Below are positions 1 through 11,655 of a DNA stretch of 46,738 nucleotides, in pieces. Each line of letters opens with the position of its first letter. Positions within the stretch are counted from its first letter, which is position 1. The notes below the pieces were generated by a model, which was not told the DNA's origin, ran no database searches, and worked only from the letters and a program-made list of their open reading frames with translations. The position numbers and the translations under genes are program-made. The stretch lies in IMG/VR virus record IMGVR_UViG_2563366826_000001; one strand, given 5' to 3'. This DNA comes from a virus (taxonomy: Duplodnaviria; Heunggongvirae; Uroviricota; Caudoviricetes).

Positions 1-1284
1 TTACTTCTTCGCCTCTGCAACCACTTTACTACCCACGCCGCGGTTATTGTATTCCCACATGCGGTTGTAGTTAGTGTCATTCAGATTGCGCTGTATTTCG
101 TCGTTATCATCTACGCTGCCGGTATTACCCGCAAACGGACGATTAGAGATCACCGCATCGGCCCACGGTTTAGCCGTGTTAAAACCTTCGTTGATGGCGC
201 TATCACGGATCACCACCTGACCGTTGGTATTGGCATCAACATCCAGCGAGCGGCCCAGTTGCGCCACACCATCACCGAAAGCATTGAAACGGCTGTTTAC
301 GGCGAGGAAACCGTAGTAAATGTTGGACAGCGTAGCCGGTGCAAACACATACGCTTCTTGCTGAGTACGTGAGTTCACCACGCGGAATTCGGTGTTATCG
401 AACACCACTGCGCCGCGACCAGAAACGATATCCACATCCCCTTCAATGTAGCTGTTGGTCACCAGCGTACGCGGCTGACGGTTGGTTTCCAGACGGTTCT
501 GCACACCGCTGTTGGTGACAAAGAAGGTGTTCTGACGACCGAGAATGTTAACGTTGTTAATCTGTACCTGGTCACCATCAGTACGCAGTGCCACCGCCGG
601 ATGGTTACCTGCATCTACGCTATCGCCCAGCGTGTTTTCGATGGTCAGATTTTGCAGTTGCAGGCCATTGTTTTGTGACCAGAAGACCGCAGAGCAGAGA
701 ACACCGATACTGTCGCTGCGTTTGCTCTGGCAGCTATCGTACATATACCACGCTGGTTTACCTGGCATATATTTGCCGCGCGGGTTGACGTCGTGACGCC
801 AGTCGGCAGGGCTCATGCCCCCATCAAGGGAAAGCCCAATCTTCACATCAATCGGTTTTTCACCTGTACCGTACAGAGTAATTCCACCCGGAGCAGCAGG
901 GACATACACCGTTCCCTGATACTCACCAGGCATCACGGCAATATACTGGCGCTTGTTAGTGCGCTTGATAATTGCCGCATCTACCGCCGCCTGAATCGTG
1001 GTATGCGTTACACCTTGAGTACCCGCCGGGCCGACAACAAAGTCAGGTTGCGCAGGCAGGGTAATCGGGGAAGGATTCCACGCTGCAGCACCTGGTGTCA
1101 GGGATGCAAAATAGTGTTGAGCATCGAAATTCTGCGCTTCTTTTGCCGACAGAATCGGGCGAGAAGAGGTACCAGGCGCGGTTTGATCAGAAGGACGTTG
1201 ATCGGGTGGTGTTGAGCTACAGGCGGTCAGCGTCACGCCAAAAGCCAATGCCAGCGCCAGACGGGAAACTGAAAATGTGTTCAC
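1..1284 (-). CDS. ybhC: Host outer-membrane lipoprotein YbhC (pectinesterase-family), full length 427 aa
   Basis: 427-aa ORF with signal peptide and lipobox (LTAC); recognised as the E. coli gene that flanks the lambda attachment site. Confidence 0.85.
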   Translation of the reverse strand: MNTFSVSRLALALAFGVTLTACSSTPPDQRPSDQTAPGTSSRPILSAKEAQNFDAQHYFASLTPGAAAWNPSPITLPAQPDFVVGPAGTQGVTHTTIQAAVDAAIIKRTNKRQYIAVMPGEYQGTVYVPAAPGGITLYGTGEKPIDVKIGLSLDGGMSPADWRHDVNPRGKYMPGKPAWYMYDSCQSKRSDSIGVLCSAVFWSQNNGLQLQNLTIENTLGDSVDAGNHPAVALRTDGDQVQINNVNILGRQNTFFVTNSGVQNRLETNRQPRTLVTNSYIEGDVDIVSGRGAVVFDNTEFRVVNSRTQQEAYVFAPATLSNIYYGFLAVNSRFNAFGDGVAQLGRSLDVDANTNGQVVIRDSAINEGFNTAKPWADAVISNRPFAGNTGSVDDNDEIQRNLNDTNYNRMWEYNNRGVGSKVVAEAKK

Positions 1285-1440: not shown

Positions 1441-2489
1441 CACTCCCTGCCTCTGTCATCACGATACTGTGATGCCATGGTGTCCGACTTATGCCCGAGA
1501 AGATGTTGAGCAAACTTATCGCTTATCTGCTTCTCATAGAGTCTTGCAGACAAACTGCGCAACTCGTGAAAGGTAGGCGGATCCCCTTCGAAGGAAAGAC
1601 CTGATGCTTTTCGTGCGCGCATAAAATACCTTGATACTGTGCCGGATGAAAGCGGTTCGCGACGAGTAGATGCAATTATGGTTTCTCCGCCAAGAATCTC
1701 TTTGCATTTATCAAGTGTTTCCTTCATTGATATTCCGAGAGCATCAACATGCAATGCTGTTGGGATGGCAATTTTTACGCCTGTTTTGCTTTGCTCGACA
1801 TAAAGATATCCATCTACGATATCAGACCACTTCATTTCGCATAAATCACCAACTCGTTGCCCGGTAACAACAGCCAGTTCCATTGCAAGTCTGAGCCAAC
1901 ATGGTGATGATTCTGCTGCTTGATAAATTTTCAGGTATTCGTCAGCCGTAAGTCTTGATCTCCTTACCTCTGATTTTGCTGCGCGAGTGGCAGCGACAGG
2001 GTTTGTTGTTATATGGCCTTCAGCTATTGCCTCTCGGAATGCATCGCTCAGTGTTGATCTGATTAACTTGGCTGACGCCGCCTTGCCCTCGTCTATGTAT
2101 CCATTGAGCATTGCCGCAATTTCTTTTGTGGTGATGTCTTCAAGTGGAGCATCAGGCAGACCCCTCCTTATTGCTTTAATTTTGCTCATGTAATTTATGA
2201 GTGTCTTCTGCTTGATTCCTCTGCTGGCCAGGATTTTTTCGTAGCGATCAAGCCATGAATGTAACGTAACGGAATTATCACTGTTGATTCTCGCTGTCAG
2301 AGGCTTGTGTTTGTGTCCTGAAAATAACTCAATGTTGGCCTGTATAGCTTCAGTGATTGCGATTCGCCTGTCTCTGCCTAATCCAAACTCTTTACCCGTC
2401 CTTGGGTCCCTGTAGCAGTAATATCCATTGTTTCTTATATAAAGGTTAGGGGGTAAATCCCGGCGCTCATGACTTCGCCTTCTTCCCAT
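1419..2489 (-). CDS. int: Tyrosine integrase Int (356 aa)
   Basis: N-terminus MGRRRSHERRDLPPNLYIRNNGYYCYRDPRTGKEF matches lambda Int; same length; adjacent to attL. Confidence 0.97.
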   Translation of the reverse strand: MGRRRSHERRDLPPNLYIRNNGYYCYRDPRTGKEFGLGRDRRIAITEAIQANIELFSGHKHKPLTARINSDNSVTLHSWLDRYEKILASRGIKQKTLINYMSKIKAIRRGLPDAPLEDITTKEIAAMLNGYIDEGKAASAKLIRSTLSDAFREAIAEGHITTNPVAATRAAKSEVRRSRLTADEYLKIYQAAESSPCWLRLAMELAVVTGQRVGDLCEMKWSDIVDGYLYVEQSKTGVKIAIPTALHVDALGISMKETLDKCKEILGGETIIASTRREPLSSGTVSRYFMRARKASGLSFEGDPPTFHELRSLSARLYEKQISDKFAQHLLGHKSDTMASQYRDDRGREWDKIEIK

Positions 2490-2685
2490 TTCTGATCCTC
2501 TTCAAAAGGCTACCTGTTACTGGTCGATTTAAGTCAACCTTTACCGCTGATTCGTGGAACAGATACTCTCTTCCATCCTTAACCGGAGGAGGGAATATCC
2601 TGCACTCGCGTACCCATCGACGAACTGTTTCAAGGCTTCTTGGGCGTCGCTGGCGTGCGTTCCACTCCTGAAGTGTCAAGTACAT
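2467..2685 (-). CDS. xis: Excisionase Xis (72 aa)
   Basis: MYLTLQEWNARQRRPRSLETVRRWVRECRIFPPP matches lambda Xis; overlaps int 5' end as in lambda. Confidence 0.95.
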   Translation of the reverse strand: MYLTLQEWNARQRRPRSLETVRRWVRECRIFPPPVKDGREYLFHESAVKVDLNRPVTGSLLKRIRNGKKAKS

Positions 2686-2703
2686 CGCAAAGTCTCCGCA
2701 ATT

Positions 2704-2732
2704 ACACGCAAGAAAAAACCGCCATCAGGCGG
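2704..2732 (-). terminator. Candidate rho-independent terminator (ccgcc-tgat-ggcgg + T6) overlapping stop of the small ORF
   Basis: Minus-strand hairpin gccgcctgatggcgg followed by tttttt. Confidence 0.4.
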
Positions 2733-2892
2733 CTTGGTGTTCTTTCAGTTCTTCAATTCGAATATTGGTTACGTCTGCATGTGCTATCTGCGCCCACAGC
2801 ATCCAGTGGTCATAGCAGTCGCTGATGTTCTCGGCTTCGATAACTCTGTTGAATGGTTCTCCATTCCATTCACCTGTGACTCGGAAGTGCAT
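2725..2892 (-). CDS. Small hypothetical protein (55 aa, MHFRVTGEWNGEPFNRV...)
   Basis: Manually translated ATG-to-TGA ORF below the 60-aa cutoff of the ORF track; position equivalent to lambda ea8.5 region. Confidence 0.4.
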   Translation of the reverse strand: MHFRVTGEWNGEPFNRVIEAENISDCYDHWMLWAQIAHADVTNIRIEELKEHQAA

Positions 2893-2974
2893 TTATCATC
2901 TCCATAAAAAAAACTCGCCGTAGCGAGTTCAGATATAATTTTCACCAAAGGCAGTAGTTGCTTTATGCTAAGAA

Positions 2975-3403
2975 TTATTCAATATCTATTCCTGTAATAT
3001 CTTTTATTTTTTTTCTTGCAAAGCCTTTTGCTAGTGATTTTGAAACACTCATAAGAGTACCAATTCCCTCATCCTTAAAGTTTGTTTTTATAGCTTGCCA
3101 GACCTCCTTTTGACGTAAGTCAGCAATAAAATCATGCCCTCTTGCTGTCAACCTCAGTGGTACTTCGAGCCAACTATATTCAACACCTTCCCCTAACTCG
3201 TTGGACATTATATGACCGAACCCAGGTTTTCCATCAACCCTAACTATTAATTCGTAGTCACATAATAATCGCATATGGAAAATAAAATTTTGGTCATATC
3301 TATTAAAGCCATTATCCTCTAGTTCACTAAGCATCGTGTCAGGGCCATAAGTTTTTTCGAATGCGATAAGTAGATCTTTTAGATATTGCTGGTCTAATTT
3401 CAT
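2975..3403 (-). CDS. Hypothetical protein (142 aa), AT-rich accessory gene
   Basis: ORF with GGAGG RBS 8 nt upstream; low GC relative to flanking lambda genes. Confidence 0.6.
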   Translation of the reverse strand: MKLDQQYLKDLLIAFEKTYGPDTMLSELEDNGFNRYDQNFIFHMRLLCDYELIVRVDGKPGFGHIMSNELGEGVEYSWLEVPLRLTARGHDFIADLRQKEVWQAIKTNFKDEGIGTLMSVSKSLAKGFARKKIKDITGIDIE

Positions 3404-3431
3404 TGCCGCCTCCGTGACATGTCACAGAGAT

Positions 3432-3770
3432 TTATATCATTAATTTTGTTTCGTGCCAGCCTTTGGTCACCCAGTATTGTGAGTCACCATTACACGGGCA
3501 TGAATTAACAGGAACTCTCTCGCCGCACTTACGGCAACGTTTTCTGCTAATCGATTTTATACGCCAGCGCACACGTGCATCATCCTGGCGGCTCAGTAAC
3601 GCTATGTACTCACCAAACTCGTAAGGCGCACGCCTGAAGCGGCGCGTGGCTCAGTTACGCTCCAGCATTTCAATTTCCTGAGCATCAAGTACAAGCTCCA
3701 GCTTACGCATACCGGATGATGCTTGCTTGGCTCTCTGATCGGCTTTGCGCTCTGCTGCTGATTTAGTCAT
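3432..3770 (-). pseudogene. Small zinc-ribbon-like ORF interrupted by an in-frame TGA (39 aa + TGA at 3651-3653 + 72 aa); pseudogene or opal read-through candidate
   Basis: Manual translation MTKSAAERKADQRAKQASSGMRKLELVLDAQEIEMLERN-TGA-ATRRF...CRKCGERVPVNSCPCNG...; single frame throughout. Confidence 0.35.
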
Positions 3771-4063
3771 TCTGCTTTTCCTGCATCAGGAGAAAGACAA
3801 TCATGGCGGCGCGGATACTTCCGGTATCTTTTTACGCGATATTACCCTTCAATGACACATACAAGAAGACAGCCATCAGCAGGAATGAGTGAGGAATCGA
3901 CAACCAGTAACGCTTAATTATCTATAGTGTCGTATTTGCTTCATAAAATATGGCGAATAACACAAAGCCCGCAGCAGCTCATTGTGCGGACTTTTCTTAT
4001 ACTTACTTCCTAGAGATAATTCTATGGAGGCATTAAATTAATGCTGTCATTGGTAATATCATA

Positions 4064-4678
4064 TTATCTAAAAGTCTTTCCACTTTTAACGTCTAGATAT
4101 ATTCTGTTCGACAACGTCATTCCTCCGCAATATGTGAAATAGATGTTTTCACCCTTATTGCTTGATGCCATCCACCCTCCAACTTCCTTAAAATCGCTCT
4201 CCGTGCAGACACCTTCACTTATTAACTTCCTAGCTGCCGAAGAAAACTCTTTTTTGTATATACGGTAGTCATCAGATCCTTTGATTAAGGTATCATTTCT
4301 GCTCGCATTTTCAGCAGGATCTGATGGCCTTTCACTGCTAAGATCACTAAGTTTAACCCATTCTGAAAACTTGCCATTAACGATTCCGTTTTTTCTTGTG
4401 CAGGATTTATTACCTTCTTTAATATATTCGCTTTCCCCTCCCACACATGAGGCTGAATATGGCTCAGTTATACGAACCCATTCACCTTTTTTTTCTAGAA
4501 AATCTACGCCTTCCCTGAAAAATAGTTTCCCAGCCACTCCACATTTACTTGAAGGGCAGGTATGTCTTTCCGTTCGATCAACAACAACCCAAAGTTTTGA
4601 TTCATTTTTTGCCATTGCCGATGGTATTTGAGATGAGAAAATTAACGTAAGCCCTAAAATTAGTGTTGATTTTTTCAT
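4064..4678 (-). CDS. Secreted Cys-rich hypothetical protein (204 aa) with N-terminal signal peptide
   Basis: MKKSTLILGLTLIFSSQIPSAMA signal-peptide-like N-terminus, multiple Cys; strongly AT-rich. Confidence 0.65.
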   Translation of the reverse strand: MKKSTLILGLTLIFSSQIPSAMAKNESKLWVVVDRTERHTCPSSKCGVAGKLFFREGVDFLEKKGEWVRITEPYSASCVGGESEYIKEGNKSCTRKNGIVNGKFSEWVKLSDLSSERPSDPAENASRNDTLIKGSDDYRIYKKEFSSAARKLISEGVCTESDFKEVGGWMASSNKGENIYFTYCGGMTLSNRIYLDVKSGKTFR

Positions 4679-4928
4679 TGTAATTTCCTTTTACTTTTTA
4701 CAAAGCATTTAATCATGACTGATTATCTCTAAGCGTAGTAACAGCCTTGTGCGAAACATGTTACCAAATCGCCATTTCAGTGTATCCACAGTTAGGCTGC
4801 CACTTCAAGGATTCCTAGTTACATGGTACGTAAGCGTAATATCCCGTTGGTTGGCAGGTAATAACTCTGATCAATTCTCCCTTGTCTTTTGCTCTTACGT
4901 ATGCAAATCTTGTACATTCAACCTAGGC

Positions 4929-5231
4929 CTACAGTTCAGCAATACGCTTACTTCCATCCGAGATAACACCTTCGTAATATTCACGCTGCTCGTTGAGTTT
5001 TGATTTTGCTGCTTCCAGCTCAACGCGCAGCTTTCCTACCGTTAGCGCAATTTCCTCGTTCTCCTGGTCGCGGCGTTTGATGTATTGCTGGTTTCTTTCC
5101 CGCTCATCCAGCAGTTCCAGCACAATCGATGGTGTTACCAATTCATGGAAAAGGTCTGCGTCAAATCCCCAGTCGTCATGCATTGCCTGCTCTGCCGCTT
5201 CACGCAGTGCCTGAGAGTTAATTTCGCTCAC
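4929..5231 (-). CDS. Hypothetical coiled-coil protein (100 aa), possibly Ead/Ea22-like
   Basis: ORF overlapping the next gene by 4 nt; acidic/coiled-coil composition; family assignment tentative. Confidence 0.5.
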   Translation of the reverse strand: MSEINSQALREAAEQAMHDDWGFDADLFHELVTPSIVLELLDERERNQQYIKRRDQENEEIALTVGKLRVELEAAKSKLNEQREYYEGVISDGSKRIAEL

Positions 5232-5449
5232 TTCGAACCTCTCTGTTTACTGATAAGCTCCAGATCTTCCTGGCAACTTGCACAAGTCCGACAACCCTGA
5301 ACGACCAGGCGTCTTCGTTCATCTATCGGATCGCCACACTCACAACAATGAGTGGCAGATATAGCCTGGTGGTTCAGGCGGCGCATTTTTATTGCTGTGT
5401 TGCGCTGTAATTCTTCAATTTCTGATGCTGAATCAATGATGTCTGCCAT
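5228..5449 (-). CDS. TraR/DksA-family C4 zinc-finger protein (73 aa)
   Basis: CCECGDPI...CRTCASC four-cysteine motif with size typical of phage TraR-like proteins. Confidence 0.7.
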   Translation of the reverse strand: MADIIDSASEIEELQRNTAIKMRRLNHQAISATHCCECGDPIDERRRLVVQGCRTCASCQEDLELISKQRGSK

Positions 5450-5547
5450 CTTCCATTAATCCCTGAATTGTTGGTTAATACGCTTGAGGGTGAATGCGAA
5501 TAATAAAAAAGGAGCCTGTAGCTCCCTGATGATTTTGCTTTTCATGT

Positions 5548-5763
5548 TCATCGTTCCTTAAAGACGCCGTTTAACATGCCGATTGCCAGGCTTAAATGAG
5601 TCGGTGTGAATCCCATCAGCGTTACCGTTTCGCGGTGCTTCTTCAGTACGCTACGGCAAATGTCATCGACGTTTTTATCCGGAAACTGCTGTCTGGCTTT
5701 TTTGATTTCAGAATTAGCCTGACGGGCAATGCTGTGAAGGGCGTTATTATGTTCTATTGTCAT
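5548..5763 (-). CDS. Hypothetical protein (71 aa, MTIEHNNALHSIARQ...)
   Basis: ATG-initiated version of the 5548-5901 ORF; the longer form would overlap the upstream gene. Confidence 0.45.
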   Translation of the reverse strand: MTIEHNNALHSIARQANSEIKKARQQFPDKNVDDICRSVLKKHRETVTLMGFTPTHLSLAIGMLNGVFKER

Positions 5764-5770
5764 ATTGGCC

Positions 5771-6523
5771 TCACACTTCGAATGCCAGTTGAGGGGTAAA
5801 GACGTCCCGTTCAGCGTTGTAATTAAGTGAACTGGCACTGTTGAATGATTCAATGCGTTCCACAAGAACTTGCGTACGGGTTTCTTTACTTGCGGGAGCA
5901 TATGGCGAACCTACCCAGGATTTGTCGATGCCTATATTTCTTGCGACGTTCGTGCTGTCTGCAGACGAAAGCGGTACATGAGTAAAAATGTCTTTATTTA
6001 ACATCCGTAACCCATGAATCTTGGTGATTGGGTAGCCGTACTGATCTACAACATGACGTATAAGATCGCGTAGTTTAGCCCGACACGCTCTCGGTCGTTT
6101 TGCATCGTATTCCCCCATCGAGCCGATGCAGACGCGGGGAAACTCATGGCACAGACGAATAAATCGCTCATCTGGTTCGTTCATGTGCCACACCGGAGCA
6201 CCAATAAATTTACCGTGAGGCCATGCCGCAATCAGGGCGTCATTCTCTTCACTGGTTCCGCCGATAACATCCGGGATAACCGCGAATGAGAAACGAGGGT
6301 GATTACCCCAGCGTTCAACAAATCTGTAATATTCATTCCAGTCTACGGCCTTGTTTTTTGTCCAGAATGTGAATGCACCATTATCAAGAGCAAATGATTG
6401 GGTGACTTCGGAAGCCAGATCAATCTGAGCTGGATTAGCAAAACTGATGAATGCGTGTCTGCCTTTCCAGGCTTTCAACGCACAGGTATCGGGAGTTATT
6501 GGACCACCGTGAAAATGAATCAT
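5771..6523 (-). CDS. Hypothetical protein (250 aa)
   Basis: ORF translationally coupled (ATGA) to the upstream small ORF; function not recognised. Confidence 0.6.
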   Translation of the reverse strand: MIHFHGGPITPDTCALKAWKGRHAFISFANPAQIDLASEVTQSFALDNGAFTFWTKNKAVDWNEYYRFVERWGNHPRFSFAVIPDVIGGTSEENDALIAAWPHGKFIGAPVWHMNEPDERFIRLCHEFPRVCIGSMGEYDAKRPRACRAKLRDLIRHVVDQYGYPITKIHGLRMLNKDIFTHVPLSSADSTNVARNIGIDKSWVGSPYAPASKETRTQVLVERIESFNSASSLNYNAERDVFTPQLAFEV

Positions 6524-6678
6524 ACACTCTCCCGTTTATTATTTATCTCCTCAGCCAGCCGCTGTGCTTTCAGTGGATTTCTGATAACAGAAAGGCCGGG
6601 AAATACCCAGCCTCGCTTTGTAATGGAGTAGACGAAAGTGATCGCGCCTACCCGGATATTATCGTGAGGATGTTTCAT
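6520..6678 (-). CDS. Small protein resembling lambda orf60a (52 aa, [24 protein letters not shown]...)
   Basis: Manual translation; ATGA overlap with exo stop and with downstream start; resembles lambda orf60a from memory. Confidence 0.5.
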
Positions 6679-7355
6679 CGCCATTGCTCCCCAAATACAA
6701 AACCAATTTCAGCCAGTGCCTCGTCCATTTTTTCGATGAACTCCGGCACCATCTCGTCAAAACTCGCCATGTACTTTTCATCCCGCTCAACCACGACATA
6801 ATGCAGTCCTTCACGCTTCATACGCGGGTCATAGTTGGCAAAGTACCAGGCATCTTTTCGCGTCACCCACATGCTGTACTGCACCTGGGCCATGTAAGCC
6901 GACTTTATGGCCTCGAAACCACCGAGCCGGAATTTCATGAAATCCCGGGAGGTAAACGGGCATTTCAGTTCAAGGCCGTTGCCGTCACTGCATAAACCAT
7001 CGGGAGAGCAGGCGGTGCGCATATTTTCGTCGCGATAGATGATCGGGGATTCAGTAACATTCACGCCGGAAGTGAATTCAAACAGGGTTCTGGCGTCGTT
7101 CTCGTACTGTTTTCCCCAGGCCAGCGCTTTAGCGTTAACTTCCGGAGCCACACCGGTGCAAACCTCAGCTAGCAGGGTGTGGAAGTAGGACATTTTCATG
7201 TCAGGCCACTTCTTTCCTGATCGGGGCTTTGCTATCACGTTGTGAACTTCTGAAGCGGTGATGACGCCGAGCCGTAATTTGTGCCATGCATCATCCCCCT
7301 GTTCGACAGCTCTCACGTCGATCCCGGTACGCTGCAGGATAATGTCCGGTGTCAT
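6675..7355 (-). CDS. exo: Lambda exonuclease (Red-alpha), 226 aa
   Basis: [43 protein letters not shown] matches lambda Exo. Confidence 0.96.
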
Positions 7356-8137
7356 GCTGCCACCTTCTGCTCAGTGGATTTCTGTTTCAGGAATCCAAGA
7401 GCTTTCACTGCTTCGGCCTGTGTCAGTTCTGACGATGCGCGAATGTCGCGGCGAAATATCTGGGAACAGAGCGGCAATAAGTCGTCATCCCATGTTTTAT
7501 CCAGGGCGATCAGCAGAGTGTTAATCTCCTGCATGGTTTCATCGTTAACCGGAGTGATGTCGCGTTCCGGCTGACGTTCTGCAGTGTATGCAGTATTTTC
7601 GACAATGCGCTCGGCTTCATCCTTGTCATAGATACCAGCAAATCCGAAGGCCAGACGGGCACACTGAATCATGGCTTTATGCCGTAACATCCGTTTGGGA
7701 TGCGACTGCCACGGTCCGGTGATTTCTCTGCCTTCGCGGGTTTTGAATGGTTCGCGGCGGCATTCATCCATCCACTCGGTAACGCAGATCGGATGATTGC
7801 GGTCTTTGCGGTAAATCCGGCATGTGCAGGATTCGTTATCCTGTTCAAAGTCCATGCCGTCAAACTGCTGGTTTTCGTTGATGATGCGGGACCAGCCATC
7901 AACGCCCACCACCGGAACGATGCCGTTCTGCTTATCAGGGAAGGCGTAAATTTCTTTCGTCCACGGATTAAGACCGTACTGGTTGGCGACGATCAGCAAT
8001 GCGATGAACTGCGCATCGCTGGCATCACCTTTAAATGCCGTCTGGCGAAGAGTGGTGATCAGTTCCTGTGGGTCGACAGAATCCATGCCGACTCGTTCAG
8101 CCAGCTTCCCAGCCAGCGTTGCGAGTGCTGTACTCAT
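7352..8137 (-). CDS. bet: Recombination protein Bet (Red-beta), 261 aa
   Basis: [48 protein letters not shown] matches lambda Bet. Confidence 0.96.
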
Positions 8138-9222: not shown

Positions 9223-10029
9223 CTACTGTAACATAGAGGCAGCATTCAGCATCTTTTCGTAATATGAACGCATGTCTTCTTTGCTATATGCGTTGATAAG
9301 ATTATCAGCGTGTTTTTCCAGTAGATTTAGCTGCTGTTTTGCTGACTTTTCTTGTGCTGTCGTTTCAGCGGCAAAAATTACAAATGAATCAATATTTGAA
9401 TTGTATAATTCGTAGGCTTTAGTAATTGTTAAAACACTTATCGCAGCTTCACCCATTTGTTTTTTTATATTTTCAGAACGAAAATCTAATGTTTCTGTAA
9501 GATGGTATTTGCCATTTTTTAACAAAAAATCTGCAACTAACCCTTCTTCATTACTAATTGGATAATTAGCTACGATTTTATGTTGGGAAAGATCTTCAAA
9601 ATACTTACTGAAAATTCCATGTTGTATAAAGGTGGATTTTAATTCAGAAAAAACCTTTTTTTTCAACTGCTTATGTGGTTGTTTTTGTGGGTTTACTAAC
9701 CGATTCATTAGATCAGTAACTTTAGCTTCGTAATCTTCGTTGGCTTGAAGAGTGAACATGCCAAATGACGATAACGATAATGCTCCCTTAAAAAGACAAG
9801 GAAGAAGTTCAGCATTGTTGATTTTTTGTGACAAATCAAAAAGCGAGGTTGAAAGATCCTCTAAGTAATCTAAGGTAAGATCTTTGTCAATCGCTTTAAG
9901 TTTTGAAACTGAATTGAGCATACGTACGTCTATGTCAGAGTCATGGTAAACGATCAAACCAACGTTAATCGTTTCACCTTTCTCTAAGTTCGGTGTAACT
10001 CTGATTAAGCTGTATTTGAAAGTTTTCAA
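9223..10029 (-). CDS. DUF3037-like protein (268 aa), second gene of the cI-downstream module
   Basis: N-terminus MKTFKYSLIRVTPNLEKGETINVGLIVY resembles the DUF3037 N-terminal signature (from memory); TTG start overlapping upstream TGA (TTGA); AT-rich. Confidence 0.55.
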   Translation of the reverse strand: MKTFKYSLIRVTPNLEKGETINVGLIVYHDSDIDVRMLNSVSKLKAIDKDLTLDYLEDLSTSLFDLSQKINNAELLPCLFKGALSLSSFGMFTLQANEDYEAKVTDLMNRLVNPQKQPHKQLKKKVFSELKSTFIQHGIFSKYFEDLSQHKIVANYPISNEEGLVADFLLKNGKYHLTETLDFRSENIKKQMGEAAISVLTITKAYELYNSNIDSFVIFAAETTAQEKSAKQQLNLLEKHADNLINAYSKEDMRSYYEKMLNAASMLQ

Positions 10030-10874
10030 GATGTTATCTCCAGTCTTATGGCATTTAGCCTATCGATTCGCTCCTCGCTGTCCCACCACTTCAAAAAATA
10101 CTCCTTATGCATTGGTGGCATCCATGCTTCAGGCATAGAGTTAAGTATATCAGATATAGTCTCAACTCCAATTTTTTCAATTTTGTCAAGGACAGATAAT
10201 GCGCACTTTCTCAGATCATCAGTGTCGCCAATGAATTGTTTAGCAATCGTCCAGTTTGTTGTTGTACTGGAGTCTGTTGGTAGTATATGAGGGGTATTTC
10301 GTGGCCAGCCTATAACAAAAGAGCTTAGACTAAAATCGAATGTTTTAACTATAACATTGCCTCGGGTGTTTTCCATGTATAAGTAGTTGTTGAGGTGTCT
10401 GTCAATGTTATATACAAATTGATCAAATGCATAAATTGCCCAGAGTTGCTTCTTTAAGGATTCAGAAGCATTTGAGAGCAAATTTATCCATTGAGGACTA
10501 TTGAGACCAGATTTCCAGGCTGAAAACTCTATGCGAGAGCCAAAAACATACTCCCCATTAGCAATACACTTGAGAATTTTGCACACAGGTGTAGCGATGC
10601 CGCATTTTTCAGCTAAATTTGTGCAAAACCATTCCGCTGCCGGTACTTGAGTTGGGTTTTGTACAGGAAAAGGTGGGGTGGAACGCATGCTTTTAACTGC
10701 ATATTCCATTTCATCAGTGGCAATAGCGAAACCAGAAAGGTGTGCAGTGCCTAAGCTTGAAGGTGTATATTCATGAAATTCTAATTCAAACAAACTTCCT
10801 TGCTCTGGTTTCACTTCATCAGTGTTTGGCTCTTGTTCTTTCGTCATCAACTTTTTTCCCCAAATCGAAGACAT
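10026..10874 (-). CDS. Atypical kinase-like protein (282 aa) with PI3/4-kinase/HipA-type catalytic loop
   Basis: YNIDRHLNN (D158-R-H-x-x-N) followed 22 residues later by TFDFS, matching catalytic-loop/DFG-like spacing; AAGAGG RBS; AT-rich; 47 nt downstream of cI. Confidence 0.6.
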   Translation of the reverse strand: MSSIWGKKLMTKEQEPNTDEVKPEQGSLFELEFHEYTPSSLGTAHLSGFAIATDEMEYAVKSMRSTPPFPVQNPTQVPAAEWFCTNLAEKCGIATPVCKILKCIANGEYVFGSRIEFSAWKSGLNSPQWINLLSNASESLKKQLWAIYAFDQFVYNIDRHLNNYLYMENTRGNVIVKTFDFSLSSFVIGWPRNTPHILPTDSSTTTNWTIAKQFIGDTDDLRKCALSVLDKIEKIGVETISDILNSMPEAWMPPMHKEYFLKWWDSEERIDRLNAIRLEITS

Positions 10875-10920: not shown

Positions 10921-11613
10921 CTACCCATGCTTCCTATACGTCTGCGGCATGCTCCCAATAACCTTACCGAAGATGAACACCCGGTTCATCTCGTCTTTCT
11001 CGATCGGGTCCCACGGTGAGTAGCTCTTGTTATCAGAGATAACCAGCAGCTTATCCTTCATCATTTGCAGACGCTTTACATGGGCTGTGTCGTCGTACAG
11101 AAACGCATAGATACCATCACCGTCGAAAGATTTAACCGTGATATCAACGAACAGCAGATCACCTGGTTCGATCGTTCCTGACATGCTGTCACCACGCACG
11201 TTAATGATGCGGATATTTTCCGCCTTCCTGCCATCGAACATGTGACGAGCATCGTCAAACGAGTACTCAACCGAGCGTAGAACTTCTACAAACTCACGGT
11301 TGATTACACCCGGCCCGGCACTGACTTCTATATCAAGAACGTCAATTTTGAAGTATTTGGAATGGCTGACAGCAGGCTTCCCTGATTGTTGACCGTCATT
11401 TCTCATCGGGCCTATGCCTGATGAGAGCCATTCTGTTCGAACACCCAATGCATTAGCTATTTCAACAATTTTTGTTGAGCCGCGCGCGTTGCCGCTTGTC
11501 AGTCTCCAGATTGTGGGTTGAGCTACGCCAGACGCCTTTGCAAGAGCGCCTTGAGACATTCCAGATTGTTCCATCGCTAGGTTTAAGCGATCAGCAAGAG
11601 TTTCTTTTTTCAT
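10921..11613 (-). CDS. cI: CI-type prophage repressor (HTH + S24 LexA-like peptidase), about 230 aa from the ATG at 11613
   Basis: N-terminal HTH (LSQGALAKASGVAQPTIWRL), Ala-Gly cleavage site (SAGPG), GDSM serine and KR lysine motifs; divergent from cro; not lambda cI sequence. Confidence 0.85.
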   Translation of the reverse strand: MKKETLADRLNLAMEQSGMSQGALAKASGVAQPTIWRLTSGNARGSTKIVEIANALGVRTEWLSSGIGPMRNDGQQSGKPAVSHSKYFKIDVLDIEVSAGPGVINREFVEVLRSVEYSFDDARHMFDGRKAENIRIINVRGDSMSGTIEPGDLLFVDITVKSFDGDGIYAFLYDDTAHVKRLQMMKDKLLVISDNKSYSPWDPIEKDEMNRVFIFGKVIGSMPQTYRKHG

Positions 11614-11655
11614 AAGTTTTAATTTATACGCTTGCGTATTGATGGTCAAAACACG

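Follow-up and report, generated by a model that had tools for sequence, protein, structure and literature searches.

Organization of the exo-xis interval

The interval lies in a 46,738-nucleotide stretch of viral DNA (the window; IMG/VR record IMGVR_UViG_2563366826_000001) and is the exo-xis ("ea") accessory segment of a lambda-like prophage, within its early-left operon; the prophage is integrated beside ybhC, at the att site of lambda. Its bounds, given in an earlier note as 2686-6520, were exact, running from the stop codon of xis to that of the right-hand boundary gene, an orf60a homolog (DUF1317; 6520..6684; PF07026, E 5e-33; 93% amino acid identity to lambda orf60a). The ORFs were said there to share one strand; every plausible gene of the interval was on the minus strand, and this holds for all genes and remnants described below. 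The seven or more ORFs counted earlier proved to be 10 ORFs or ORF pieces, corresponding to eight genes and one split pseudogene.

Comparison with lambda by blastn placed junctions at 2939/2940, 4931/4932, 5745/5746, and 6520/6521, which defined two separate substitution cassettes in place of the single island proposed earlier. Cassette 1 (2940..4931; 1,992 bp, 35-40% GC) stood in for 762 bp of lambda, comprising ea8.5 and the 3' 82 codons of ea22. Cassette 2 (5746..6520; 775 bp, ~47% GC) stood in for 283 bp that covered orf63 and a 5' portion of orf61, a replacement missing from the earlier account. The 814 bp between them was lambda-like (97.8% identity by blastn). The AT-richness claimed for the region held for cassette 1, where the ORFs at 2975-3403 and 4064-4678 contained 35.4% and 38.4% GC against 51.1% for the whole window, but not for cassette 2, whose 250-aa gene had 47.3% GC. 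On the basis of where blastn placed the junctions against phages lambda, SfI, and Chlobot and against two E. coli genomes, the tblastn identities of each ORF, and the PGAP annotation of near-identical loci, the interval is very probably a recombinational mosaic of small lambda genes and two independently acquired, unrelated cassettes.

[quoted passage not shown] The interval shared with it the position between exo and xis, the pL strand, and orf60a, Orf73, the 31-aa peptide, orf55, and N-terminal Ea22 at 93-100% amino acid identity; it differed in carrying a DpdA-like gene where lambda has orf63 and a 5' portion of orf61, and a 2-kb AT-rich cassette in place of ea8.5 and the Ea22 C-terminal domain. 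The earlier view of an early-left, pL-transcribed accessory region with candidates for host takeover or anti-defence was retained, but the discrete AT-rich island gave way to this long-known variable region (PMC8614690).

Genes shared with lambda

Lambda's own genes here were orf55, truncated ea22, Orf73/TraR, the 31-aa peptide, an orf61-like ORF, and orf60a. The 55-aa orf55 (2725..2892; lambdap35 of lambda; phrog_676, E 5.5e-40; 96% amino acid identity to the lambda frame) sat within the lambda-homologous block 2400-2939 found by blastn. The earlier note held that both ea8.5 and ea22 were replaced; ea8.5 was, whereas ea22 (4929..5231; PF13935, E 2.9e-29) kept the N-terminal 100 of its 182 lambda codons, with 97% amino acid identity to lambda Ea22 residues 1-100 and homology ending at 4932. 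The lost 82 codons included the C-terminal dimeric domain, and PGAP labeled the gene "incomplete; missing C-terminus".

The TraR/DksA-family C4 zinc finger noticed previously was found at 5228..5449 (PF01258, E 1.6e-8; TIGR02419, E 1.1e-14), and is not additional cargo; it was 100% identical in amino acid sequence to lambda Orf73, for which RNA polymerase binding and host reprogramming have been proven experimentally (PMC9239242). The ORF at 5456..5551 encoded 31 aa with 100% identity to lambda and is, judging from size and position, probably the 31-aa peptide (orf2313) of the same block, whose expression is reported from ribosome profiling (PMC8614690). The orf61-like ORF (5548..5763; 71 aa, phrog_303) was called by PGAP in this 216-bp version, and its residues 21-71 matched a lambda frame with 100% identity. 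The program-made list gives it instead as a 117-aa ORF, which over-extends into the upstream gene; the phrog_303 match covered only residues 45-117 of that longer version (E 7e-34).

Genes carried by cassette 1

Cassette 1 contained a gene for a DUF2513 protein, a nonsense-inactivated gene, a umuD fragment, and a gene for a secreted SH3b-domain protein, and no flanking repeats of the cassette were found. The DUF2513 protein (2975..3403; 142 aa) matched PF10711 (E 1.3e-10; 41.9 bits, cutoff 29.6) and phrog_585 (E 6.7e-33). Its 113 homolog clusters were from Enterobacterales without exception, and the Serratia homologs lay two to three genes away from a prophage integrase. Sequence and profile searches of the PDB gave no match.

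Two ORFs previously counted separately, 3651-3770 and 3432-3572, shared one reading frame and were pieces of a single 112-codon Cys-rich gene (3432..3770; phrog_536, "transcriptional regulator") broken by an in-frame TGA at 3651-3653. The intact copy WP_001129736 has TGT (Cys) at codon 40, where the present gene has TGA; relative to that copy, codons 50 and 99 also carried Cys-to-Tyr changes. PGAP labeled a 99.9%-identical copy "internal stop". Next to it, at approximately 3804..3914 (a position transferred from related records), was a non-coding remnant of a umuD-like DNA-repair gene with stops in all three frames of the window. For the same place in E. coli locus L009, which is 97% identical, the PGAP annotation was "DNA repair protein, incomplete, missing N- and C-terminus", and the Chlobot annotation there was "UmuD-like protein".

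The SH3b protein (4064..4678; 204 aa) had a Sec signal peptide with predicted cleavage after AMA at residue 23, and, behind it, a bacterial SH3 (SH3b) domain in the N-terminal part; its C-terminal part was an alpha/beta domain without a known fold. This predicted Sec-exported protein may bind the cell wall in the periplasm. For both it and the DUF2513 protein, resemblance of fold or domain is what suggests a role.

The DpdA-like gene of cassette 2

Cassette 2 amounted to one gene (5771..6523; phrog_887, E 4e-99) for the 250-aa protein noticed earlier, a putative DNA-guanine transglycosylase of the DpdA family (TGT superfamily), without 7-deazaguanine synthesis genes of its own. Its start overlapped the orf60a stop (ATGA). 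The earlier statement that no function could be assigned did not stand for Orf73, nor for this protein, which was 100% identical to SfI gp34 (YP_009147480), listed as a DpdA-only (singleton) member by Hutinet et al. 2019 (PMC6884629, Suppl. Data 1). Their gamma-proteobacterial singleton set comprises SfI gp34, HK106, BTP1, SEN1, PEAT2, and 7-11 (PMC6884629). Identity to the BTP1 and 7-11 members was 68% and 36% (7-11: YP_004782407, E 1e-36), and the set shared a length of ~250 aa, the same motifs, the lack of linked preQ0 genes, and, where the phage is lambdoid or P22-like, a place in this early-left ea region. The protein itself showed no difference; what set the present case apart was the flanking mosaic alone, with a Chlobot-type cassette 1 here.

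Homology to the DpdA family is highly probable from sequence. Family alignment with the 9g DpdA (DpdA1), which has been shown to insert preQ0/G+ into DNA, gave a profile match of 98.2% over 153 columns (E 4.6e-14, hhalign), and pairwise BLASTP gave E 6e-8. The aligned motifs of the DpdA-like protein and 9g DpdA were LDNGAF/LDSGAF, WHxxEP/FHxxEP, KIHGL/KVHGF, and SADST/SCDSS, the spacing of 19 residues between His and Asp was identical, and neither had a CxCxxC Zn motif. The two differed in that identity was ~21%, that 9g DpdA, at 317 aa, is extended at both termini, and that its gene adjoins folE, queD, gat-queC, and queE whereas the present gene stands alone. The base-recognition Asp was three residues off in both the hhalign and BLASTP alignments.

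The invariant residues of the family, D47, H170, S187, D189, and S190, fell on the C-terminal ends of successive predicted β-strands or immediately beyond them, as expected of a TIM-barrel active site. In comparison with bacterial DpdA (PDB 7UI4), the acid/base Asp and the Phe four residues on (D47/F51 here, D95/F99 there) and the nucleophile Asp (D189 here, D256 there) were alike. Unlike bacterial DpdA and TGT/ArcTGT, the protein had no structural Zn site, large Ins8 insertion, or N-terminal lid. Bacterial DpdA requires the ATPase DpdB, and no such partner was evident here. No sequence similarity to E. coli Tgt was detectable by hhalign. Searches of Pfam, NCBIfam, PADLOC, and PDB sequences gave no match, Pfam likewise giving none for the validated 9g DpdA, and Foldseek against the PDB returned only generic TIM barrels, none at E <= 0.001.

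Homologs retained 84-91% protein identity with only 72-77% DNA identity (dN 0.07-0.13, synonymous sites saturated), and this strong purifying selection indicates a functional gene, as do the 6,182 homolog clusters of the family, mostly of ~250 aa. Across 80 related IMG/VR loci, the usual direct neighbours were orf60a and the orf61-like ORF, and homologs of FolE, QueD, QueE, or QueC were found within 10 kb in none.

Proposed mechanism and alternative explanations

The most informative gene of the interval is predicted to encode a stand-alone DpdA-type enzyme that swaps guanine for a host-made 7-deazaguanine. After infection or induction, N-antiterminated transcription from pL would lead to its expression. 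Asp189, placed by His170, would serve as the nucleophile and Asp47 as the general acid/base; guanine would be excised from phage DNA at some sequence motif, and preQ0, or one of its derivatives (for example ADG), would be inserted from the host FolE-QueD-QueE-QueC pathway. The outcome would be a low-density modification that blunts the restriction enzymes of the next host, while Orf73 would bind RNA polymerase and divert host transcription, as shown for lambda. Insertion of host-made preQ0 as anti-restriction appears the most likely mechanism, and the activity, substrate, target motif, and benefit are inferred. Validated members of the DpdA family protect phage DNA from restriction (PMC6884629). 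Host supply of the precursor is feasible because 9g DpdA alone in E. coli yielded dPreQ0 in plasmid DNA at 0.3% of G, and because phage 7-11, whose sole deazaguanine gene is the 36%-identical member, contains dADG at 50 per 10^6 nt, only ~0.02% of G (PMC6884629). Another singleton-DpdA phage, Orion, showed no modification; it belongs to a separate Mycobacterium cluster, with a host that lacks preQ0 synthesis. According to Hutinet et al. 2019 (PMC6884629), it is difficult to foretell whether the DNA of a DpdA-only phage is modified. For the whole explanation, mosaic and DNA modification together, we estimate a probability of about 0.55.

It is rather unlikely that the protein, though a genuine DpdA/TGT homolog, has moved on to a different substrate or role and leaves phage DNA unmodified, acting on tRNA, on protein-linked 7-deazaguanine as CBASS Cap10 does, or by guanine excision without insertion. 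Functional divergence was raised for exactly the gamma-proteobacterial singleton cluster (Hutinet et al. 2019, PMC6884629), and the compact family without a Zn subdomain, never linked to preQ0 genes, is consistent with it, as is the barely modified DNA of 7-11 (PMC6884629). The type IV CBASS protein Cap10 (PDB 9NTN) also has a His-Asp pair at similar spacing (catalytic H226/D248 there, H170/D189 here), but identity was 10%, and the resemblance may only reflect common barrel compactness. Cap10 acts with Cap9 and a CD-NTase; the present gene belongs to the early operon of a phage, and a Cap9/QueC-like or CD-NTase partner was absent from every context examined. Profile similarity points instead to the DNA-acting phage DpdA, and a location next to the recombination genes of the early operon would fit a protein that acts on DNA. 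It is considerably less probable that the region is mostly evolutionary baggage, decaying remnants left by lambdoid recombination with no useful cargo beyond lambda exo-xis genes. The nonsense-inactivated gene with its further Cys losses, the truncated ea22, and the umuD fragment fit such decay, and so do an IS100 splitting the DpdA-like gene in one genome, the deleted, defective prophage that holds cassette 1 in E. coli F1005, and a search of the coding strand that found no sigma-70-like promoter. Against this, the DUF2513, SH3b, and DpdA-like ORFs were intact, of full family length, and conserved across genera, and the DpdA-like gene kept all invariant residues under purifying selection.

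For cassette 1, a lysogenic-conversion "moron" in place of an early lytic anti-defence factor is possible but doubtful. The SH3b protein made by the lysogen would act on the periplasmic cell wall or envelope, for example by excluding superinfecting phage or by modulating lysis or peptidoglycan turnover. Its Sec signal peptide, six invariant Cys residues, and SH3b fold typical of peptidoglycan-binding modules are in keeping with this role, as are the AT-rich composition, the non-coding flanks of 250 bp and 290 bp, and the Pseudomonas homologs that adjoin integrases. However, no promoter-like site was found on the coding strand of the upstream gap, the downstream side showed only a weak hairpin as judged by eye, and the C-terminal domain had no informative structural match.

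Distribution of the modules

Most of the interval is not new, and its modules are already known from many E. coli prophages. They recurred at 98-100% identity in SfI, Chlobot (96.7% for cassette 1), and ~100-130 complete E. coli genomes each; each cassette was present in ~2% of such genomes. A match of every ORF to well-characterised housekeeping proteins, the outcome named earlier as speaking against an accessory island, was not observed: no function could be given to the DUF2513 and SH3b proteins, orf55, or the orf61-like ORF. The stretch 5254-7400 was 98.0% identical to phage SfI, and cassette 1 was 99.9% identical to copies in E. coli F1005 and others. Among 5,426 complete genomes of E. 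coli, 130 contained cassette 1, counted as present when at least 80% of its length was found, and 100 contained the DpdA-like gene; the cassette 2 gene and a Chlobot-type cassette 1 occurred together in one of the 5,426.

Mosaic structure of the exo-xis region

The window carries a lambda-like prophage that occupies the lambda attachment site. At the left end of the window, ybhC (1-1284, minus strand) preceded a lambda-type int (1419-2489) and xis (2467-2685), and exo (6675-7355), then bet and gam, lay past the interval studied here (2686-6520). This interval, from the xis stop to the orf60a-like stop, is the exo-xis region of the lambda literature and is transcribed early from pL (PMC8614690). 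The ORF list contained every ORF reported in the earlier note, all on the minus strand, and the AT-richness described for two of them was also found (35.4% GC for 2975-3403 and 38.4% for 4064-4678 versus 51.1% for the window); the gene of the 250-aa protein (5771-6523, minus strand) had a GC content of 47.3%. The earlier note had proposed one island replacing ea8.5 and ea22. Comparison with lambda by blastn showed that ea8.5 and the 3' part of ea22 were indeed replaced, but the island resolved into two separate substitutions set among lambda-homologous blocks at 2400-2939 (97.0% identity), 4932-5745 (97.8%), and 6521-7400 (96.9%). Cassette 1 (2940-4931, 1,992 bp) replaced 762 bp of lambda containing ea8.5 and the final 82 ea22 codons, and cassette 2 (5746-6520, 775 bp) replaced 283 bp containing orf63 and the 5' portion of orf61. 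Sequence identity of the left part (2400-5745) was 99.9% with E. coli F1005 and 96.7% with phage Chlobot, and that of the right part (5254-7400) was 98.0% with phage SfI.

A transposon-like island was rejected because neither cassette was flanked by terminal repeats; the repeat search found only short two-copy matches at chance level. No RNA family was detected in the interval by Rfam on either strand at E ≤ 0.1. The promoter scan detected nothing resembling a sigma-70 site on the coding strand, so a promoter of their own was not supported for the AT-rich genes, and a promoter-like site was also absent from the strand of the gene at 4064-4678. The interval is ordinary lambdoid module shuffling, and we consider this mosaic anatomy very likely to be correct. 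All of its parts had been sequenced and annotated before, with the DpdA prediction published in 2019 and Orf73 characterised, and the interval combines known modules in a new way within a region of a known type.

Genes shared with lambda

The conserved block of the lambda exo-xis region (orf60a, orf63, orf61, orf73, and ea22) was incomplete: orf60a and orf73 were present, but ea22 was shortened, orf61 was represented only by a 71-aa ORF, and orf63 was absent. The block had the expected position, flanked by exo and xis, and the expected pL strand. At the two edges of the interval, orf55 (2725-2892, minus strand) had 96% identity to lambda orf55, and orf60a (6520-6684, minus strand) encoded a DUF1317 protein. 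The Ead/Ea22-family ORF (4929-5231, minus strand; PF13935, E 2.9e-29) was 97% identical to residues 1-100 of lambda Ea22 and stopped where the lambda homology stopped, so that only the first 100 codons were kept. Because the ORF ends at this point, the C-terminal dimeric domain, a published feature of Ea22, is missing. The equivalent ea22 copy was labelled “incomplete” by PGAP.

The TraR/DksA C4 zinc finger protein encoded at 5228-5449 (minus strand) had 100% amino acid identity to the lambda Orf73 frame and matched PF01258 with an E-value of 1.6e-8 (34.8 bits, cutoff 24.9). Judged from these matches, it belongs to the TraR/DksA family, as does the RNA polymerase-binding lambda Orf73. Lambda Orf73 binds RNA polymerase and inhibits rRNA and ribosomal protein promoters, with slower host growth and larger burst size (PMC9239242). 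A 31-aa ORF (5456-5551, minus strand) was 100% identical to a lambda frame and probably corresponds to the lambda 31-aa peptide detected by ribosome profiling. The orf61-like gene (5548-5763, minus strand) encoded 71 aa from a start at 5763. Residues 21-71 were 100% identical to a frame at 4137-4350 of the lambda locus (L003) that is unannotated in NC_001416, and the N-terminus showed a 71% match to another lambda frame. The longer 117-aa ORF 5548-5901 was rejected as a real gene since similarity to the family was confined to its last 73 residues and codons 1-44 overlapped the DpdA-like gene. The annotated lambda orf61 may belong to the phrog_303 family in a frame-shifted form or with different boundaries.

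Genes of cassette 1

The 142-aa protein encoded at 2975-3403 (minus strand) passed the gathering threshold of the DUF2513 model PF10711 (41.9 bits, cutoff 29.6) and covered profile positions 1-99 of 100. Its homologues formed 113 clusters in Enterobacterales, and a Serratia homologue was also located a few genes away from a prophage integrase. No solved structure was found for it in the PDB by sequence or profile, and a literature search for DUF2513 turned up no publication. The 204-aa putative SH3b protein (4064-4678, minus strand) is interpreted as an exported and probably peptidoglycan-binding cargo. Both proteins recur as prophage cargo and would be sensible, though unremarkable, choices for screening.

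The ORFs 3651-3770 and 3432-3572 shared one frame and matched the N- and C-terminal parts of phrog_536, and a umuD-like remnant followed this split gene. Codon 40 (3651-3653) was TGA, versus TGT (Cys) in the intact allele, and two further Cys codons were changed to Tyr. Selenocysteine or programmed read-through was considered at this position, where the intact allele encodes Cys; it was rejected on the two additional Cys-to-Tyr changes and on the PGAP “internal stop” call in a 99.9%-identical copy (E. coli F1005, locus L008, 3247-3585). The split Cys-rich gene is a pseudogene. The TGA allele is not private to the window, as it was also present in E. coli F1005, with the intact allele in strain 09A19CPO009, and the dead gene seems to travel with the otherwise conserved cassette.

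Assignment of the 250-aa protein to the DpdA family

The product of cassette 2 had no match in Pfam, NCBIfam, or PADLOC scans, none of the 51 sequences in a diverse family alignment had a Pfam hit, and PDB sequence searches with the single protein or the profile returned spurious hits only. Pfam likewise misses the validated 9g DpdA. In PHROGs, the protein matched phrog_887, “queuine tRNA-ribosyltransferase”, with an E-value of 4e-99. It was 100% identical to SfI gp34 (YP_009147480), which is listed as DpdA-only in Supplementary Data 1 of Hutinet et al. 2019, together with proteins of HK106, BTP1, SEN1, PEAT2, and 7-11 (PMC6884629); a tblastn search with the 250-aa protein recovered those same phages. 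A literature search combining DpdA with lambdoid found no publication. At 90% identity the family comprised 6,182 clusters, and at 50% it was covered by 894 representatives; most were about 250 aa long. Among the matches listed, homologues were named “hypothetical protein” in RefSeq/PGAP, and phage records with PHROG-derived names carried “queuine tRNA-ribosyltransferase”, the name of the tRNA enzyme and not of the DNA one. A curated DpdA-like model would improve annotation.

Alignment of the 51-sequence family against 9g DpdA by hhalign gave a probability of 98.2% and an E-value of 4.6e-14 over 153 columns, and pairwise BLASTP gave an E-value of 6e-8. The motifs LDNGAF, WHxxEP, KIHGL, and SADST of the family were paired by hhalign with LDSGAF, FHxxEP, KVHGF, and SCDSS of 9g. 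These alignments point to significant similarity to an experimentally validated DpdA, and we hold homology of the 250-aa protein to the DpdA family with high confidence. A TGT-like (β/α)8 barrel fold was predicted; TGTs were not recovered by Foldseek with the 250-aa protein. An hhalign comparison of the family with a single E. coli Tgt sequence gave no match (probability 0.5%), a result that is uninformative with a one-sequence template.

Residues D47, H170, S187, D189, and S190 were invariant, and D85 nearly so, in the 51 sequences, which extended down to 31% identity. In both the hhalign and BLASTP alignments, D47 (LDNGAF) and D189 (SADST) were aligned with D72 and D215 of 9g. Bacterial DpdA uses D95 as general acid/base and D256 as nucleophile, and its F99 stacks on the base; activity is lost when the two catalytic aspartates are replaced by alanine. 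On this analogy, D47, together with F51, would serve as general acid/base in the 250-aa protein, and D189 would act as nucleophile. Residue D85 (IPDVI) was at least 90% conserved and directly followed a predicted strand; in both alignments it was paired with S111 of 9g, three residues ahead of D114. H170 was located 19 residues before D189, a spacing also found in 9g DpdA, and the pair resembled H226/D248 of Cap10. The structural Zn2+ site (CxCxxC...H) was absent, as the 250-aa protein had no Cys cluster and ended 61 residues past D189 with a tail devoid of cysteine. Because the validated 9g DpdA likewise has no CxCxxC motif, the Zn site marks TGT and bacterial DpdA, not phage DpdA.

Neighbourhood, selection and distribution

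None of 80 related IMG/VR loci (84-100% amino acid identity) carried a homologue of 9g FolE, QueD, QueE, or Gat-QueC within ±10 kb, and no preQ0/G+ synthesis genes (folE, queD, queE, queC/gat-queC) were found in the studied interval. Without such linked genes, the 250-aa gene falls in the published “DpdA-only” group. The DpdA-like gene was directly preceded upstream by orf60a in 37 of the 80 loci and directly followed downstream by the orf61-like ORF in 32, and the P22-like phage BTP1 carried it in the equivalent ea region. The DUF2513 or SH3b gene was found in 0/80 loci, which argues that cassettes 1 and 2 travel independently. Homologues at 84-91% protein identity had just 72-77% DNA identity. 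The synonymous sites were saturated, which precludes dN/dS, and selection was shown as this contrast of protein and DNA identity; it indicates that the DpdA-like gene is under strong purifying selection.

Among 5,426 complete E. coli genomes, the DpdA-like gene was present in 100 (at least 99% identity) and cassette 1 in 130 (at least 80% coverage). Only one complete genome, that of strain 09A19CPO009 (locus L009, 5096-6897), contained both cassettes, and there the DpdA-like gene was split by IS100 (istA/istB). In E. coli F1005 (locus L008, 5819-8060), orf60a was frameshifted, and beyond it the segment of int, xis, and cassette 1 joined P/ren, emrE, and ybcK sequences, which are characteristic of the DLP12 region; the F1005 element is a deleted, defective prophage. 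Two phage records (MW057783.1/OR850331.1) had unexpected labels. “Campylobacter phage CJLB-4” (48 kb) equalled genuine lambda records in lambda coverage and identity, and “Staphylococcus phage SA 1298 Kay” (1.7 kb) encoded a Salmonella-type DpdA homologue, so both look like mislabelled or contaminant records.

Proposed modification of DNA with host preQ0

The most likely role of the enzyme is modification of DNA with host preQ0. Once pL transcription started, it would exchange guanines at some motif in the phage DNA for preQ0 made by the host, or for a derivative of it, and the outcome would be partial protection against restriction. We give a probability of about 0.5 to modification of DNA that depends on the DpdA-like gene. 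This role is plausible because 9g DpdA expressed alone in E. coli puts preQ0 into DNA using host preQ0 (PMC6884629), because a full queuosine pathway has been reported in the hosts of DpdA-only gamma-proteobacterial phages, and because phage 7-11, whose sole deazaguanine gene is DpdA, contains dADG in its DNA at 50 per 10^6 nt, a very low level reported with no knockout control (PMC6884629). The 7-11 protein was 36% identical to the 250-aa protein. Against this role, the 2019 authors noted that the status of singleton phages is difficult to predict and that this cluster may have diverged (PMC6884629).

The compact lambdoid singleton “DpdA” might instead act on some other substrate bearing 7-deazaguanine, as a phage counter-measure or regulator, and not as a DNA modifier. 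It could remove or hijack the deazaguanine conjugate needed by type IV CBASS (Cap9/Cap10), or it could drain or redirect the host preQ0/CDG pool of QueC-like defence systems. The support for such a role is confined to the closest solved structure, which was Cap10 rather than DpdA, and to the possible functional divergence of this cluster raised in 2019 (PMC6884629). We consider the counter-measure role very improbable.

If these enzymes mark phage DNA from host preQ0, 7-deazaguanine anti-restriction, so far demonstrated only in phages with their own preQ0 synthesis genes, would extend to temperate phages of E. coli, Shigella, and Salmonella, and prophage DNA would behave differently in restriction digests and nanopore base-calling. 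The present case adds one more intact stand-alone DpdA in a temperate lambdoid phage, and its practical value is small.

A gene pair in the rexAB slot

Two overlapping, strongly AT-rich genes (30-40% GC) occupied the lambda rexAB slot of the window (9223-10874, minus strand), directly downstream of a cI-like S24/HTH repressor (10921-11649). Their products are a 268-aa DUF3037 protein (PF11236, E 1.6e-9) and a 282-aa HipA-like kinase (PF20613, E 1.3e-6), and together they look like a candidate prophage defence or abortive-infection pair.
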